A stretch of 32,000 bases of DNA from the NCBI RefSeq assembly GCF_016806735.1, contig NZ_CP060530.1:180001-212000 (forward strand), given 5' to 3'. The first letter of the stretch is position 1, and every line of letters starts with the position of its first letter. The translations under genes were made by a program, and so were the position numbers. The notes beneath the pieces were generated by a model. That model had not been told where the DNA came from. It made no database searches and was given only the letters and a program-made list of their open reading frames with translations. The DNA is from Candidatus Micrarchaeum sp. GTDB taxonomy: Archaea > Micrarchaeota > Micrarchaeia > Micrarchaeales > Micrarchaeaceae. Below are positions 518 to 25,708 of this stretch, piece by piece.

Positions 518-788
518 GCCTTGGCGGATAGGCTGGGAAGCTAAGGGTTTCCCGTTCGCAAATCCCTTTCTGGCGGGCCAATGCCGGTTGCGTTATGCAA
601 GCGGCTTTTGCGCCCAGATGGAAGCGTTGATGCCTTGCCCCAGGTGGTAGCTTGGTGCGTGAACCAGGCCAGGCCGGAAGGAGCAACCTTAAGCACATTC
701 AGGCTACGCTCCCGGGATACGGGGCTGAGCTGAAGTATGGTCAACGCAACTGCTGCTTGCATGGCAAGGCCGGCTTCCGCCGCTAAGA
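518..788 (+). ncRNA. signal recognition particle RNA (archaeal 7S RNA)
   Basis: GC-rich non-coding block. It contains ccaggccaggccGGAAggagcaaccttaag, which matches the universal SRP helix-8 motif (compare E. coli 4.5S CCAGGUCAGGUCCGGAAGGAAGCAGCCAAGG) with its GGAA tetraloop. 5' cttggcgg (520-527) pairs with 3' ccgctaag (780-787) to close the molecule. Length of about 270 nt fits archaeal 7S RNA. The ORFs at 495..698 and 541..762 here are spurious. Ends are good to about +/-5 nt. Confidence 0.8.
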
Positions 789-1552: not shown

Positions 1553-1647
1553 GCAATCACAAATATCAAACGCAATTTCTTTTATTTAGCATTTTCCCAA
1601 ATCTGTTCTGTAGTAATATGCACTATTTTCAGGCGGTTTAAAAAAAG

Positions 1648-1722
1648 CGGGCTCGGAGGGATTTGGACCCTCGACTTAGAGGTTAAAAGCCTCCCACTCT
1701 GGCCAAACTGAGTTACGAGCCC
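1648..1722 (-). tRNA. tRNA-Lys(UUU)
   Basis: Reverse complement reads GGGCUCG UA ACUC AGUUUGGCCA GAGU G GGAGG CUUUUAA CCUCU AAGUC GAGGG UCCAAAU CCCUC CGAGCCC G. This is a perfect 75-nt cloverleaf with no intron. A TATA-like ttttatatat lies about 28 nt upstream on the minus strand. Confidence 0.9.
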
Positions 1723-3441: not shown

Positions 3442-6195
3442 TTATCTCTGCCCGTATTTTGCATAAAATGACAGGTACTGGCTCATGACAACGTCAGGGG
3501 CGGATGGCTTCGTCAATTTAATTATGCTCTCCAGGTCTTCATTCGTGACTTTCGAATCCTCACCGCTCTTTATTGTGCGCTGCATTGCCCTGGTTTTTGC
3601 CTCCCTGCAAATGCTCGCTATGTCCGCCCCGGTATAATTCTTGGTCATGCTCGCGAGCAGCTTGAAATCCAGATTCGCCGCTTTTGGGACCTTTTCCAAA
3701 TATTCTTCGAATATCTTGGCCCGCGCTTCCTCGTCTGGAGGTTTTATGAATATGAGCTTGTCAAATCTTCCGGGCCTCAATATTGCAGGATCCATCACGT
3801 CAGGCCTGTTAGTTGCCCCTACTACTATCACGTTATTCATCTGCTTCAGCCCGTCCATGTCCTTAAGCATTTCTGTTGTTATCTGTGCGTTTATCTCGCT
3901 CGCATTTTGCCTGTTTATTATTATCCCGTCTATCTCGTCTATGAATATGATTGATGGCTTGTTCTCTATGGCCCTGTAAAAAATCGACTTCAGCTTGGCA
4001 TTCGCGTTTTCTATGCCTTCGTTCTGCAGGGTGGGCGCGTCTATCTCCAGCATGGTCACTCCCTTCAACTCATTGGCCACTGCGCGCATCAGCATCGTCT
4101 TTCCCGTTCCGGGCGGCCCGAAAAGTAGCATGCCATTTATCGTCTTTATATCATATTTTTCAAGAAGGTCAGGATGCATCAGCGGTATCTGTATTGCTTC
4201 TACTATTGCCTTCTTTGCAGCATCGAGCCCTATGACTTTGTCGAGCGTGATTTCGTCTTCCTTTTTGGACGTGGTATCGTTGCCCATGCGCCTTTCGAAA
4301 TCTACCTTGAACGTATTGTATTTCTCAATCTGTGCGAGCGTAGTCGAAGGCTTTGTAGATTTTATGACGCTTAGCATGTCGTCCATTGTTATCTCAAGTA
4401 TCCTGTGCTCGTTCGCTGCTTCCTGGGCCACCATTTGGGCTACGCTTTGGCATACTGCTTTTATGTCGGCACCAGTATACCTGGGCGTCTTTTCCGCTAG
4501 CAGATCAAGGTCCATGTTGCTGGAAACTGGCAATTTTTTAAGGTATATCTCAAATATTTTCTTCCTGCCGTTGAAGTCTGGGAGCTGCATGTATATCGCC
4601 CTGTCGATCCTTCCTGGCCTCAAAAGTGCAGGGTCGAGTTTATCCGGTGTGTTTGTGGCTCCAACCACTATAACATGCTCCAGCTTCTGGAATCCGTCAA
4701 GCTCCTGCAACAGCTGCGATAATATGTGCCTGTGAACTTCATCAGTCTCCAAGTCCCTGCTCATTGCTATTGAATCTATTTCGTCTATGAAAAGCACGCA
4801 CGGAGTGTTCTTGTTTGCTATTCCGAATATGTTGCTGAGCATCTTCTCCGATTCGCCAGTGTACGCGGATACTATGTTCGTTCCTTTGATATAAAAGAAG
4901 TTCGCATGTATCTCGTTGGCAAGAGCCCTCATCATAAGTGTCTTTCCAGTTCCTGGAGGACCAAAAAATATTATGCCTTTGAGCGGCTTTATGTTGTATG
5001 CCCTTGAAATGCCCTTTTGCTCCAGAGGGGCTATTATGGCTTCCTTGAGCTCTGTCTTGGTATTTTCATAGTTTCCTATGTCATCAAAGGTTTCGGTAAC
5101 GTTGCCCTGCTGCAAATCTTCGAACGCTTCCCCGAACTTCATTCGCGTATCATACTTCTTAACGTCAAGTGCCTTTACAACCTTCACATTGTAAAGCTCC
5201 AGTATCGCTAGGCCAACAGGTGCTATTGCAAAGCTTATGAAAGGGTAAATGTAGTTTATGTTTATCGGCTGCAGTATTCCAACTGCAAGGTATCCTATTG
5301 GGATTATCACCCCTGCTATTGCTGCTTTTCCTCCCTTTATCTTGGATCTGCTGTTTATTGCAATCCTTTCAATGGCAAACGCGGCAAGCAGGTATATCGG
5401 TATTACCAAAAGGTAATATATCTGTTTTGAAATGGCGCTCAGCATCATCGCAAACGTCACGTCTATGCTTTCTATGGCATTTTTGGAAACGAACTTGTTT
5501 GCCGCAATGCTTGCTCCTTTGGCGAAATTTATAATGTTAAGGGCGGGCAACCCTTCATAAGTATAGTTTAATTCGCTACCGAAATCTTTTGTACTGAATC
5601 CCTGATGTACCAAATGCCCATTCAACGGCACAAGCGCGCTGGATCCTATGCCCATCACTCCGGAAAATGCGGCAATGCCGAGCACGACAATTAGGAACAT
5701 CATGACGGATCTTTTGAATCCCACCGTAAGCACTGCAAATATCGCTACCGGTATGGCAATGACTACTCCTACGAATGAAAACGCTGAAGCAATCAGTATG
5801 TAAGCGAACAGTATGGTCCTGTAATGCATGTAACCGTATATGAGCGAGAAGCTCAATATGAATAGGAATATCCATGCCAAAGCCGGCGTCTGGTACACCA
5901 ATATCGGTACCATTATAAGCATCAGCAATATGAATCCAAGAAACGGGTGTATCTCAGTGGCGGCGAAGAGCCCTATGACTATGAGCAGAATTATAAGGTA
6001 AGGGTAAAAGGGAAACGCGTATGCAATCGATACGAAAGCAAGTGCCACTAGGACTGCATCAAGGAAGTTCTTGTTGGACCTTATGTTCATCAGCAGGTCC
6101 TTTATCCTGTAATACCACAGCGGCCCTCGTTTTGCCTGCTTGAGTATATTGCGGACTCTTTCGCTTTTTATCTCCTCGTTACCTATTTTTGGCAT
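3442..6195 (-). CDS. membrane-anchored tandem AAA+ ATPase (Cdc48/VAT-like D1-D2 cassette fused to a polytopic N-terminal membrane domain)
   Basis: 917 aa. Residues from about 40 to 335 are a run of hydrophobic helices, roughly 8-10 predicted TM segments. D1 has Walker A FFGPPGTGKTLMMRALANE, Walker B CVLFIDEIDS and second region of homology ATNTPDKLDPALLRPGRIDR. D2 has LFGPPGTGKTMLMRAVANE, SIIFIDEIDG and ATNRPDVMDPAILRPGRFDK. There is no protease domain. Confidence 0.85.
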   Translation of the reverse strand: MPKIGNEEIKSERVRNILKQAKRGPLWYYRIKDLLMNIRSNKNFLDAVLVALAFVSIAYAFPFYPYLIILLIVIGLFAATEIHPFLGFILLMLIMVPILVYQTPALAWIFLFILSFSLIYGYMHYRTILFAYILIASAFSFVGVVIAIPVAIFAVLTVGFKRSVMMFLIVVLGIAAFSGVMGIGSSALVPLNGHLVHQGFSTKDFGSELNYTYEGLPALNIINFAKGASIAANKFVSKNAIESIDVTFAMMLSAISKQIYYLLVIPIYLLAAFAIERIAINSRSKIKGGKAAIAGVIIPIGYLAVGILQPININYIYPFISFAIAPVGLAILELYNVKVVKALDVKKYDTRMKFGEAFEDLQQGNVTETFDDIGNYENTKTELKEAIIAPLEQKGISRAYNIKPLKGIIFFGPPGTGKTLMMRALANEIHANFFYIKGTNIVSAYTGESEKMLSNIFGIANKNTPCVLFIDEIDSIAMSRDLETDEVHRHILSQLLQELDGFQKLEHVIVVGATNTPDKLDPALLRPGRIDRAIYMQLPDFNGRKKIFEIYLKKLPVSSNMDLDLLAEKTPRYTGADIKAVCQSVAQMVAQEAANEHRILEITMDDMLSVIKSTKPSTTLAQIEKYNTFKVDFERRMGNDTTSKKEDEITLDKVIGLDAAKKAIVEAIQIPLMHPDLLEKYDIKTINGMLLFGPPGTGKTMLMRAVANELKGVTMLEIDAPTLQNEGIENANAKLKSIFYRAIENKPSIIFIDEIDGIIINRQNASEINAQITTEMLKDMDGLKQMNNVIVVGATNRPDVMDPAILRPGRFDKLIFIKPPDEEARAKIFEEYLEKVPKAANLDFKLLASMTKNYTGADIASICREAKTRAMQRTIKSGEDSKVTNEDLESIIKLTKPSAPDVVMSQYLSFYAKYGQR

Positions 6196-23587: not shown

Positions 23588-23626
23588 TGCAGTCTTGAGG
23601 ATTTATGCAGGTACCGATATATGGCC
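23588..23626 (-). repeat. 16S rRNA 3'-trailer half of the processing stem (pairs with 25658-25708)
   Basis: tgcagtcttgagg (23588-23600) is the exact reverse complement of cctcaagactgca (25696-25708). ggtaccga/atatggcc (23610-23626) pairs with ggccatat...tcggtacc (25658-25685), with unpaired bulges between the helices. This is the classical archaeal pre-rRNA helix arrangement. Confidence 0.65.
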
Positions 23627-23766
23627 CGCACACTTATGTTTTTGAGGTGATCTATCCGCAGGTTCCCCTACGGATACCTTGTTATACCTTAGCCCACCTC
23701 GCGAAACCTTAGTTCGAAAACGCCAGTGGCGCTGCCTCACTAAGACCTCACTTGGGTGGCTTGGTA

Positions 23767-23802
<36 letters not shown>

Positions 23803-24078
23803 TCGATAGTGACAAGCGATTACTAGGGATTCCAGCTTCATGAGGGCGAGTTTCAGCCCTCAATCCGAACTTGGGCCGGTTTTAGGGGATTAGCTTCACC
23901 TTTCGGTGTTGCATCTCATTGTGCCGACCTTTGTATGCCGCGTGTAGCCCAGAAGATTCAGAGCATACTGACGTATCGTCGCCCTCTCCTTCCTCCTCCT
24001 TAAACGAAGGCGGTCCTAACAGAGTGCCCTGCTTATCTCTAAGCAGGTAGCAACTGTAAGCGAGGGTCTCGCTCGTTT

Positions 24079-24597
24079 CCGGGTCAATGAATAATACTCG
24101 CAATTCTAAGGCTGTAATCTTTTATTAGCGTTATGAATGCGGACTGGTTTGCAAGGTAATCCTTGCTGCCCCTTTTGTCCGTGTGTATGTTGAGCCTTTC
24201 GAGTACTACCTCGTCAACGCTGTCCATGCCCTTCAGAAAGATGCCTTTAGCATCCTTGCCTCCGTTGCAGTCGAACAGCGCCGCGAAGTAATTTCCGGAA
24301 TATGCATTGGCGTACTTGAATATGTTTACTCTTCTTTCAAGCGCCTTTTCAAACCTTTTCACCATCGTGGAGTTGTAGAAGAAAGTTTTCTTGACCTTGC
24401 CCTCGCTGTCGATGATTATCTTGTTAGGCTCAATGCCGAACTCGTCCATTGCGAGCTTGGCAAACCTTGCAATCATATCATCGTCGCTTGAGGACAGTTC
24501 AATCCGCTTTCCCCTGTTGCACCTGTATATTCCAAGCATGTAGCTTGTATCAGGCGTTAGTCTTAGCTTTTGTGTCATTGTATCACTCATAGACTTA
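24079..24597 (-). mobile_element. 16S rRNA intron carrying a homing-endonuclease-type ORF
   Basis: The exon sequence GUUAAGUCCGG is interrupted at 24598/24597 and resumes as AAACGAGCGAGACCC at 24078. Joining the two restores the universal GUUAAGUCnGGnAACGAGCGAGACCC block at the correct length. CCGG is repeated at both junctions, so the exact splice point is ambiguous within 4 nt. Confidence 0.8.
24084..24590 (-). CDS. LAGLIDADG-type (double-motif) homing endonuclease-like protein encoded in the 16S intron
   Basis: 168 aa from AUG at 24590, 7 nt into the intron, to UGA at 24084-24086, 5 nt before the intron end. Motif 1 is SYMLGIYRCNRG (24513-24539). Motif 2 is YFAALFDCNGG (24261-24287), about 84 aa later. 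The 60 N-terminal codons of track ORF 24084..24770 are translated rRNA exon and are excluded. Confidence 0.75.
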   Translation of the reverse strand: MSDTMTQKLRLTPDTSYMLGIYRCNRGKRIELSSSDDDMIARFAKLAMDEFGIEPNKIIIDSEGKVKKTFFYNSTMVKRFEKALERRVNIFKYANAYSGNYFAALFDCNGGKDAKGIFLKGMDSVDEVVLERLNIHTDKRGSKDYLANQSAFITLIKDYSLRIASIIH

Positions 24598-25657
24598 CCG
24601 GACTTAACCGGACAGTTCACACCACGAGCTGACGGTCGCCATGCACTACCTCTCGGCTTGTCAGGTAAGATCTTCAGTCTGACCTTCACACTGCCGTCGC
24701 TTCTGGTAATATTTCCGACGTTGGATTCAATTAAACCGCAGCATCCACCCCTTGTGTGCTCCCCCGCCAATTGCTTTAAGTTTCAACCTTGCGGCCGTAC
24801 TCCCCAGGCGGCAGACTTAACACTTACGCTACGGTACTGCAAGCATTCGTGATACTTGCAACACCAGAGTCTGCATAATTTACTGCTAGGGCTACTCGGG
24901 TATCTGATCCGATTCGTTCTCCTAGCCTTCGCTCCTCACCGTCGGATGCGTTCTAGTCAGGCGCCTTCGCCACCGTTAGTCCTTATAGGATTACAGGATT
25001 TAACCCCTCCCCCATAAGTACTCCTGACCTCACCCGCTCCCTAGCCGATGGGTATCTCGCGCACGCATTGACGTTGAGCGCCAATATTTCACGCGAGACG
25101 GCATCAGCCGGCTACGAGCGCTTTAAGCCCAATAATCGTGGACACCACTTGTGCTGCCGGTATTACCGTGGCGGCTGCCACCGGTCTTGCCCAGCACTTA
25201 TTCGCCAAGCTTGCTATACTTGGCAAAAGGTTCACAAAGTGAACCACTCAGATTCCCCCCATCACGCTTACGCGCATTGTGGAGTTTGCGCGCCTGCTGC
25301 ACACCGTAGTGCTAGGGCCCTTGTCTCAGTGCCCTTCTCGGGGCTTATGCTCCCACATCCCCTACGGGTTATAGGTATGGTGGGCCGTTACCCCGCCATC
25401 TGCCTGATCCGCCGCAGTCTCATCGTAAAGCGGAAGCGCTGCAATTCGCGCTCCTTTAAGTCAGGGCTCCTTCCAGAATCCCTGGCCTATGGCGCATTAG
25501 CCACAGTTTCCCATGGGTATTCGCCTCTTTACGGTAGATTGACTACGTGTTACTGAGCCGTACGCTGCCCAGCGAAGCCGCTGAGCGAACTTGCATGGCT
25601 GTCGAAATCTGATAGCAGTGCCCTCCAGCAGCATCGACTGGAATCGATGTCTGGAAC

Positions 25658-25708
25658 GGCCATATTTATCGCAATTGTCGGTACCTTATTGCACTCCTCA
25701 AGACTGCA
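25658..25708 (-). repeat. 16S rRNA 5'-leader half of the processing stem (pairs with 23588-23626)
   Basis: See the feature at 23588-23626: a 13-bp perfect helix plus two 8-bp helices separated by bulges. Minus-strand TATA-like boxes (cttataataaggtataaatac, about 25810-25835) lie upstream. Confidence 0.65.

Follow-up and report, generated by a model that had tools for sequence, protein, structure and literature searches.

Introns have been noted in the 16S rRNA genes of the Micrarchaeota Mia14 and ARMAN-2 (Golyshina et al. 2017, PMC5498576), and ARM-1 carries a 522-bp insertion at E. coli position 1093 that encodes a hypothetical protein with distant similarity to the protein of the ARMAN-2 insertion (Sakai et al. 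2022, PMC8784108). An insertion as such was thus already known in this phylum, while the function of the insert protein and the removal of the insertion from the mature rRNA were described as uncertain (Sakai et al. 2022, PMC8784108). Introns recur at position 1093 in Thermoproteales, Desulfurococcales and Aigarchaeota (Jay & Inskeep 2015, PMC4496867), and group I introns also occur in the rRNA genes of Micrarchaeota (Nawrocki et al. 2018, PMC6125680). Here we analyse a 519-nt insertion in the 16S rRNA gene of Candidatus Micrarchaeum sp., which lies in a stretch of 32,000 nt of contig NZ_CP060530.1 (positions 180,001 to 212,000), called the window in the following and used for all coordinates. 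We consider it rather probable that this element represents an intron of the bulge-helix-bulge (BHB) type within the 16S rRNA gene of a member of the Micrarchaeota (DPANN), that its only gene was once a homing endonuclease gene and now encodes a nucleic-acid-binding protein, and that the intron is a vertically inherited carrier of this gene and is not actively homing.

The insertions of ARM-1, ARMAN-2 (UNLARM2_0643) and Mia14 and that of the window have in common the phylum, the 16S locus, an almost equal length (522 bp in ARM-1 versus 519 nt) and a single open reading frame (ORF) for a hypothetical protein. It should be noted that the window protein was set beside the ARM-1 and ARMAN-2 (EET90204) proteins by site, size and description; when the protein collection was searched again with a profile, the ARMAN-2 protein did not come up by name. 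Whereas the papers on these three organisms called splicing and function uncertain and reported no homology, a BHB motif with covariation, a LAGLIDADG fold and a wider protein family are described here. In the literature searched, we found no BHB assignment with covariation for a Micrarchaeota 16S insertion, no LAGLIDADG fold with both catalytic acids missing for the insert protein, and no relatives adjacent to the 16S rRNA gene or embedded in operons.

The homing endonuclease I-DmoI, from an intron of the 23S rRNA gene of Desulfurococcus mobilis, and the 1093 introns of Thermoproteales and Desulfurococcales share further traits with the window intron, namely the type of host gene, BHB-type junctions, an ORF that fills the intron and a monomeric double-domain fold, and the 16S locus of the 1093 introns is the same as or adjacent to that of the window. 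In contrast to I-DmoI, the window protein lacks the catalytic Asp/Glu in either motif, has a shortened N-terminal domain and stays below the Pfam threshold, and in contrast to I-DmoI-type introns, the family to which it belongs is largely vertical and has free-standing relatives.

The 16S rRNA gene and the boundaries of the insertion

The 16S rRNA gene matches the full Rfam archaeal small subunit (SSU) model (RF01959, model positions 1-1478) with 1333.5 bits. Its length is in good agreement with the about 2002 nt given in the initial annotation, in which the strand of the intron (minus) had not been stated. The gene and its parts are as follows:

23642..25644, minus strand: 16S (SSU) rRNA gene, 2003 nt with the intron, 1484 nt spliced
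24596..25644, minus strand: 16S exon 1, 3' end ...GUCCGGUUAAGUCCGGUA (cmscan alignment, junction set by the BHB motif and intron-less relatives)
24077..24595, minus strand: predicted BHB intron, 519 nt, with corrected boundaries (earlier 24079-24597)
24084..24590, minus strand: ORF from ATG at 24590 to TGA at 24086-24084, 507 nt with the stop codon, 168 amino acids, protein with a predicted I-DmoI-like LAGLIDADG fold
23642..24076, minus strand: 16S exon 2, beginning with ACGAGCGAGACCC... (cmscan alignment)

A re-scan of positions 23900-24760 with the SSU model revealed one insertion of 520 nt after GUUAAG, at a place where the model expects 1 nt, and in this alignment the insertion is flanked by GUCCGGUUAAG...CCGGAAACGAGCGAGACCC. 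The locus corresponds to about E. coli positions 1093-1101 in the conserved GUUAAGU hairpin/ACGAGC region, as had been proposed (about 1090-1100); it is named 1093 in the literature, and in strict E. coli numbering the cut lies between 1101 and 1102. The identical insertion was found at the same site in at least 16 distinct sequences of independent assemblies, and an assembly artefact is ruled out for this reason.

Because CCGG is present at both ends of the insert, five registers are equivalent, and the junction is not fixable by the sequence alone. Six intron-less Micrarchaeota 16S rRNA genes read ...GTCCGGTTAAGTCCGGTAACGAGCGAGACC; the sequence of the site in intron-less relatives is also given by CCGGTAACGAGCG, and a 40-bp stretch of the intron-less site is GAACTGTCCGGTTAAGTCCGGTAACGAGCGAGACCCTCGC. 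BHB geometry and the intron-less relatives together place the cuts at A24596/A24595 and A24077/A24076. Excision at 24595..24077 joins ...CCGGUA to ACGAGCGAGACCC, which is the sequence of the intron-less 16S rRNA genes of loci L013, L026, L029, L031, L033 and L037, and the Rfam model is then colinear across the predicted spliced junction, GUCCGGUA followed by ACGAGCG. The register 24597..24079, in contrast, would yield CCGGAAACG, which was seen in no intron-less relative. Three independent observations back the corrected register: the intron-less 16S rRNA genes, the pattern of variation in the 3' bulge and the covariation of the intron ends. The earlier proposal that excision of 24079-24597 restores a conserved block holds in so far as excision reproduces the intron-less relatives, but the boundaries were off by 2 nt. 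The size of the insert (519 nt) and the position of the 507-nt ORF, which begins at nt 8 and stops 5 nt short of the end, were correctly described in the coordinates 24597..24079.

A bulge-helix-bulge motif at the intron ends

On the RNA strand, the 5' junction reads ...GUUAAGU-CCGG-UAA-GUCUAUGAGUGAUAC... and the 3' junction reads ...GUAUUAUUCAUUGAC-CCGG-AAA-CGAGCG. The elements of the predicted motif are:

24598..24601, minus strand: 5' strand of the central helix, CCGG, the last paired bases of exon 1, pairing with 24079-24082, invariant in 14/14 introns
24595..24597, minus strand: 5' bulge UAA, 3 nt between central and inner helices, predicted cleavage UA/A between 24596 and 24595
24580..24594, minus strand: 5' strand of the inner helix, GUCUAUGAGUGAUAC, intron-intron pairing, holding the first AUG and the Shine-Dalgarno-like GAGUGAU (24588-24582), with 86-89% of cells paired
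24083..24097, minus strand: 3' strand of the inner helix, GUAUUAUUCAUUGAC, holding the last four codons and the UGA stop
24079..24082, minus strand: 3' strand of the central helix, CCGG, intronic, mimicking the exon CCGG at 24608-24611
24076..24078, minus strand: 3' bulge AAA, predicted cleavage AA/A between 24077 and 24076

The inner helix between 24580-24594 and 24083-24097 comprises 15 bp with one U.U mismatch, and the geometry of a 4-bp helix between two 3-nt bulges on opposite strands was found in all 14 introns compared. Compensatory changes have occurred in 11 of the 15 inner-helix pairs across these 14 distinct introns. The fraction of inner-helix cells that are paired was 91.3% for 11 introns and 88.6% for 14 introns, compared to 27-40% when the partner was slid by one to three columns, and the observed pairing or covariation score was reached by none of 500 column shuffles. 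The bulges yielded additional information: in the relatives, AA, UA or UU stands at the first two positions of the 3' bulge, whereas neither the A at the third position nor the CGAGC after it changes, as expected if the third base alone is exon. The central CCGG helix is invariant and is thus consistent with the structure, without being informative about covariation; in the mature 16S rRNA, the exon CCGG at 24608-24611 pairs with 24598-24601 according to the Rfam consensus structure line.

Folding of the junctions, which had been suggested as a check for a BHB motif, gave a divided result. The minimum free energy (MFE) fold of a mini-construct forms the inner helix and the BHB structure, but the motif was not returned when the whole region of 601-616 nt was folded, and thus the assignment relies on the comparative evidence. 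For the whole intron, the fold constrained to the BHB motif lies 1.8 kcal/mol above the MFE. No group I intron, group II intron or any other Rfam family matched the insert, neither at the gathering score nor at E values of up to 1. The alignment to the covariance model had likewise been suggested, and its single 520-nt insertion could in principle be an expansion segment retained in the rRNA; this reading is not favoured given the BHB covariation and the restoration of the exons, which argue that the insert is an archaeal-type intron and a probable BHB substrate.

Canonical BHB motifs are cut after the second base of the bulge; the cut position within the bulges was taken from this rule, and it fits the intron-less sequence. 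In the predicted splicing reaction, the exon CCGG (24601-24598) of the pre-rRNA would pair with the intronic CCGG (24082-24079), and the 15-bp helix of the two intron ends would leave UAA and AAA as bulges on opposite strands. The tRNA-splicing endonuclease would cut UA/A and AA/A, the exons would be ligated to ...GUCCGGUA-ACGAGCG..., and the 519-nt intron would probably be freed as a circle. The epsilon2 EndA of a member of the Micrarchaeota (ARMAN-2) cleaves strict as well as relaxed BHB motifs in vitro (PMC3239211). The 10 largest window ORFs include neither EndA nor RtcB, the ligase that joins the exons of BHB introns.

The intron-encoded protein

Only 12 nt of the intron (5 + 7 nt) lie outside the ORF. 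The start that is conserved in the family is probably the second ATG of the ORF, at 24578 (MTQKL..., 164 amino acids). Public gene calls for this ORF (window positions 24084-24770, minus strand; proteins P0001 and P0003) begin at a TTG in exon 1 and comprise 228 amino acids, of which the first 60 residues (MAGEHTRGGCCGLIESN...) are translated 16S rRNA and thus an annotation artefact, and other entries of the family end with SGNERDPR, which is translated exon 2.

An AlphaFold2 model based on an alignment of 23 sequences (pLDDT 92.1, pTM 0.88) shows a compact protein of two alpha/beta domains, the N-terminal of which is trimmed and one strand short, with one strand before the second helix. The top Foldseek matches are I-DmoI structures (TM 0.63-0.69, probability 1.0), followed by intein endonuclease domains, the LAGLIDADG domain of WhiA (3hyj, E 3.7e-3, TM 0.59) and I-Tsp061I, and a search of the family profile against the PDB retrieved E-DreI (E 3.5e-4) and I-DmoI (E 0.016-0.09). 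By its modelled fold, in which two alpha-beta-beta-alpha-beta-beta-alpha domains (the first with one strand fewer) pack against each other via both LAGLIDADG helices, the ORF product is therefore a LAGLIDADG protein of the I-DmoI-type double-domain class. A profile search against the LAGLIDADG families had been suggested earlier. The window protein matched Pfam LAGLIDADG_3 with 16.4 bits (E 0.011), below the cutoff of 22.5 bits, and weak Pfam matches were obtained for 7 of 23 family members, none of them above the threshold. The intron ORF had no match in NCBIfam, and the identity of the window protein to I-DmoI is about 15%. Ubiquitin-like PDB matches of a single-sequence search were discarded as spurious, being partly driven by a tag/linker stretch.

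The two LAGLIDADG motifs are located at:

24510..24542, minus strand: degenerate motif 1, YMLGIYRCNRG, with N25 at the position of the catalytic Asp (D21 of I-DmoI) according to family alignments
24258..24290, minus strand: motif 2, YFAALFDCNGG, with N109 at the position of I-DmoI E117 and I-CreI D20

The helix of motif 1 comprises residues 13-24 in the model, and its register versus I-DmoI was assigned by hand (YMLGIYRCN versus YLLGLIIGD). For motif 2, the profile-to-PDB alignment places 'FDcnG' of the family on 'YVAEG' of I-DmoI and on 'VDGDG' of the I-CreI-derived E-DreI, and thus N109 at the catalytic Glu/Asp position. In I-DmoI-type enzymes, each LAGLIDADG helix carries an acidic (Asp or Glu) metal-binding residue at its C-terminal end. 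Among 31 Micrarchaeota sequences, a catalytic acid was found in none at motif 1, in one at motif 2 and in none at both. An exhaustive hidden Markov model search of 1.84 billion cluster representatives yielded 131 matches at E values of up to 0.001; the 111 strong representatives (E at most about 1e-8) have a catalytic acid at motif 1 in three cases, at motif 2 in two cases and at both positions in no case, and borderline matches with canonical GDG/AEG motifs (GDGS/AEGT) are ordinary LAGLIDADG proteins. Position 6 of motif 2 (D107 of the window protein) is D or E in 104 of 106 sequences, and the following Gly (G110) is nearly invariant across the family. The family proteins are basic, with a median isoelectric point of 9.4. 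We infer that nuclease activity has probably been lost and that the role of the protein would now lie in nucleic-acid binding.

Family members inside and outside of the 16S rRNA gene

All named sources label the proteins of the family 'hypothetical', and the sources are nearly all DPANN. The 28 loci in species-representative genomes carry Candidatus Micrarchaeota-type titles, with the exception of two that are labelled Marsarchaeota and one that is labelled as bacterial, and one more member in the protein collection bears the name Candidatus Iainarchaeum (printed 'ainarchaeum'). L030 (DATLRT010000016.1) and P0156 are listed under the bacterial names Candidatus Acidiferrales and Candidatus Acidoferrum, and are probably mis-binned archaeal contigs. 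A scan of metagenomes with the pattern GGTTAAGTCCGGTAAD returned 120 loci, 115 of which were chance matches and 5 of which were 16S rRNA genes.

In one genomic context, the family gene resides inside the 16S rRNA gene at the same site as in the window, whose copy is a typical intron-borne member (further loci: L006-L012, L015-L019, L022, L023, L025, L027, L028, L032, L038, L039, L041, L107, L123 and L132). L132 represents a very divergent 'GMWKGRK...GIGI' subtype, which occupies the same 16S site and the predicted proteins of which also end with SGNERDPR. In 6 of 16 distinct introns (L028, L032, L041, L107, L123 and L132), the reading frame reaches the 3' splice site without a stop codon; these frames end six codons into exon 2 in the pre-rRNA, or 0-9 codons past the junction if the intron is circularised, and in L028 and L032 a UAG would arise from the circle junction itself. 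Related Micrarchaeota contain further introns at other sites of the 16S rRNA gene, the window gene having a single intron. These comprise a 671-nt insert with a Pfam LAGLIDADG_3 ORF in L013 (at about position 744 of the window 16S), inserts of about 845 nt near the 3' end in L023, L038 and L107 (position 272 of the window exon 2) and an insert of about 445 nt in L037 (at about position 135).

In a second context, the gene is free-standing and lies on the same strand 130-250 nt behind a 16S rRNA gene that is uninterrupted at the site (L026, L029, L031, L033, L034, L035, L037 and L040), and in L013 and L036 a free-standing copy is found, with other genes in between, behind a 16S rRNA gene that lacks this intron. 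The contigs with 16S-adjacent copies have kept the would-be target site, which is identical to the spliced exons. The 16S-adjacent genes are situated beyond a conserved trailer (...CTCAAGACTAC...) that matches a strand of the processing stem of the window, and have AT-rich, promoter-like DNA upstream; a suspected flanking of these copies by BHB-like CCGG junctions was not confirmed. In L029, the free-standing gene lies between the two copies (at about 3830-3860 and about 4590-4620) of a direct repeat that is about 35 nt long (cattttctcgcattaaacctcaagacta) and looks like a 16S trailer that was duplicated upon insertion of the gene cassette. L006, which is close to the genome of the window, contains an intron copy (L006:141-836) and in addition a free-standing paralogue of 172 amino acids (L006:2190-2705), which shows 45% identity and is separated from the 16S rRNA gene before it by about 900 nt; the 32-kb window contains no second family copy.

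In a third context, family genes are found away from rRNA genes. L163:2501-3028, L165:2501-3019 and L166:2501-3025 are part of a cluster with the order upstream ORF, family gene, (YjbQ), NAD kinase and RadA, and about 30 nt of the family gene are shared with the downstream gene in L165 and L166. In L164:2501-3055, the family gene overlaps an upstream epimerase gene by 4 nt, and L042, L020 and L021 likewise belong to this group. No 16S or other rRNA gene is present within 2.5 kb of the cluster-embedded members, which thus resemble ordinary cellular genes in their behaviour. The operon-embedded members are preceded by small ORFs, which are not paralogues of the family.

Selection and inheritance

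Close pairs of family genes have ratios of nonsynonymous to synonymous substitution rates (dN/dS) of 0.08-0.20, for intron-borne and free-standing copies alike, which indicates purifying selection; for the window ORF and its close relatives the values are 0.10-0.15. The family ORF has its full length (about 140-170 amino acids) in 16 of the 16 completely recovered introns, among which no ORF-less or decayed intron was seen. Protein distances and 16S distances are correlated across 17 genomes (Mantel r 0.73, reached in 0 of 5000 permutations), and the protein and 16S trees are broadly congruent, with agreement of the main groups. In both trees, the intron-bearing L038 is the sister of the 16S-adjacent, free-standing clade.

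Discussion

The evolutionary history that we propose would have started with an ancient BHB intron at the 16S site that carried an endonuclease gene. The gene would then have lost the metal-binding acids and would have been held under selection as a gene for a basic nucleic-acid-binding protein. Inheritance would have been mostly vertical, with repeated moves of the gene out of the intron, in some cases to the 16S trailer and in others into ordinary gene clusters.

Some parallels to this history exist. In the bacterial protein WhiA, N-terminal LAGLIDADG domains serve DNA binding, and WhiA and the organellar LAGLIDADG maturases are alike with the present family in that the LAGLIDADG scaffold is under selection after the loss of the metal-binding acids; in contrast to WhiA, the window protein has no WhiA-type C-terminal helix-turn-helix domain. 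BHB introns are cut by a protein, and they are not known to need a maturase. Phages contain free-standing homing endonuclease genes beside the target gene ('intron-less' or collaborative homing), and similarly, members of the family adjoin a gene that is interrupted by other members. Here, however, the neighbouring target is intact and identical and the proteins are devoid of the catalytic residues, and self-cleavage is thus evidently not occurring. The LAGLIDADG-coding inserts at conserved rRNA sites of the Candidate Phyla Radiation (CPR), which also comprises ultra-small symbiotic prokaryotes, have ORF-less and degraded versions spread over the tree of their hosts, and at least one of the inserts encodes an active enzyme (Tsurumaki et al. 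2024, PMC11270868). In contrast, each of the introns described here contains an intact ORF without catalytic residues, and the chemistry of excision (archaeal BHB) is different.

The initial annotation had regarded protein-coding rRNA introns of this kind as a mark of mobile-intron activity, and a functional homing endonuclease of the LAGLIDADG type, which would cut 16S alleles without the intron at this site so that the intron is copied into them, would indeed be in accord with the I-DmoI-like fold, with the insertion at the recurrent endonuclease-intron locus 1093 of Crenarchaeota and Aigarchaeota (PMC4496867) and with the presence of intron-plus and intron-minus 16S rRNA genes in the same phylum. 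The occupation of an identical site by very different protein subfamilies, the purifying selection on the ORF and the conserved Asp that is left in motif 2 (D107) could be explained in the same way. Nevertheless, we regard active homing as unlikely. None of the 111 representatives has an acid at both catalytic positions, and free-standing members share a contig with an uninterrupted, identical target, so that, with such a specificity, an active enzyme would cleave the chromosome on which it is encoded. Other members are located inside syntenic gene clusters, protein distances track 16S distances, and ORF-less or decaying introns, which are known for the CPR rRNA insertions (PMC11270868), were not found. 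The intron is thus probably not mobile at present, and the claim of mobile-intron activity is not upheld. That the insert is not spliced, and either stays in the mature 16S rRNA as an expansion segment or is excised without ligation, leading to a fragmented 16S rRNA, appears improbable to us. The removal of the equivalent 522-bp insertion of ARM-1 was called unknown (Sakai et al. 2022, PMC8784108), and a relaxed BHB motif together with an unconstrained fold that favours the native hairpin would be compatible with retention, but compensatory changes have maintained the pairing of the ends and the bulges are constant in size and position, as is expected for an endonuclease substrate. In addition, variation in the 3' bulge is free at the two intronic positions and absent at the exon base, and 519 nt at the junction of the GUUAAGU hairpin and ACGAGC would disrupt the universally conserved core of the 16S rRNA. 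A self-splicing intron of group I or II has a precedent, as group I introns that contain LAGLIDADG ORFs occur in rRNA genes of Micrarchaeota (PMC6125680), yet the few nucleotides outside the ORF leave no room for a ribozyme core and even the permissive Rfam search gave no intron match, and we assign a negligible probability to it.

Several points weigh against our preferred reading of a BHB intron that is vertically inherited and carries a former homing endonuclease gene. With respect to splicing, cleavage, ligation and circle formation are predicted from sequence, and the central CCGG helix does not vary and thus contributes no covariation support. The unconstrained fold prefers the native CCGG hairpin to the BHB motif by the 1.8 kcal/mol mentioned above, and the motif is not a strict hBHBh' motif: the 3' bulge adjoins the ACGAGC/GCUCGU helix via a multi-branch junction, so that a continuous exon-exon outer helix is missing and the motif is a relaxed (HBh'-like) one. 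With respect to the protein, the proposed loss of nuclease activity is based on the identity of residues, and with D107 retained a non-canonical active site is conceivable. With respect to inheritance, the loci were gathered by protein similarity, which introduces an ascertainment bias, and intron-borne members are dispersed over the protein tree. Introns of divergent subfamilies are located at precisely one 16S site, as L132 and the window show, which together with the L006 paralogue indicates that homing or relocation happened in the past, and paralogy as in L006 blurs the vertical signal.

It is conceivable, and proposed here tentatively, that the whole family is a domesticated, non-cutting LAGLIDADG family that is almost confined to DPANN archaea and supplies host nucleic-acid-binding factors, possibly acting on 16S rDNA or pre-rRNA. 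The intron would then be kept for its useful gene, and the intron RNA, excised and probably circular, would serve as the message for the protein. In many Micrarchaeota, the sole address of the gene might be inside or immediately behind the 16S rRNA gene.

Surroundings of the 16S rRNA gene

The neighbours of the 16S rRNA gene are housekeeping genes, encoding a CDC48-like AAA ATPase, alanyl-tRNA synthetase, an eRF1-family protein and a pyrophosphatase. No 23S or 5S rRNA gene is present in the 32-kb window, and the 16S rRNA gene is thus unlinked to either of them there. The 16S leader (25658-25707) and trailer (23589-23626), both on the minus strand, contain three complementary blocks that form a pre-16S processing stem (GCAGUCUUGAGGA/UCCUCAAGACUGC, GGUACCGA/UCGGUACC and AUAUGGCC/GGCCAUAU), in which inspection by eye did not pick out a clean 3-4-3 BHB motif. 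The window also encodes a tRNA-Lys(UUU) (1647-1722, minus strand) and an archaeal signal recognition particle RNA (521-783, plus strand), which scores barely above the Rfam threshold (97.2 versus 96.5 bits) and shows a large deletion in the central helix.

Implications

The intron lies in a universally conserved region and gives the 16S rRNA gene a length of 2 kb, and therefore length filters, chimera checks and rRNA-based binning will mishandle these organisms, while gene callers produce a false protein of 228 amino acids that starts with 60 residues of translated rRNA exon. For the question that had been left open for the cultured Micrarchaeota, an answer at the level of sequence can be given: the features of the insertion are those typical of a spliced BHB intron, and the 'hypothetical protein' has a predicted LAGLIDADG fold. 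If the loss of the catalytic residues means what it usually means, intron-borne copies, copies behind the host gene and copies in ordinary gene clusters would together represent a well-populated natural series of a homing endonuclease gene after homing has stopped, and the family would offer a testable hypothesis for the conversion of a selfish rRNA-intron gene into a gene for a host protein.

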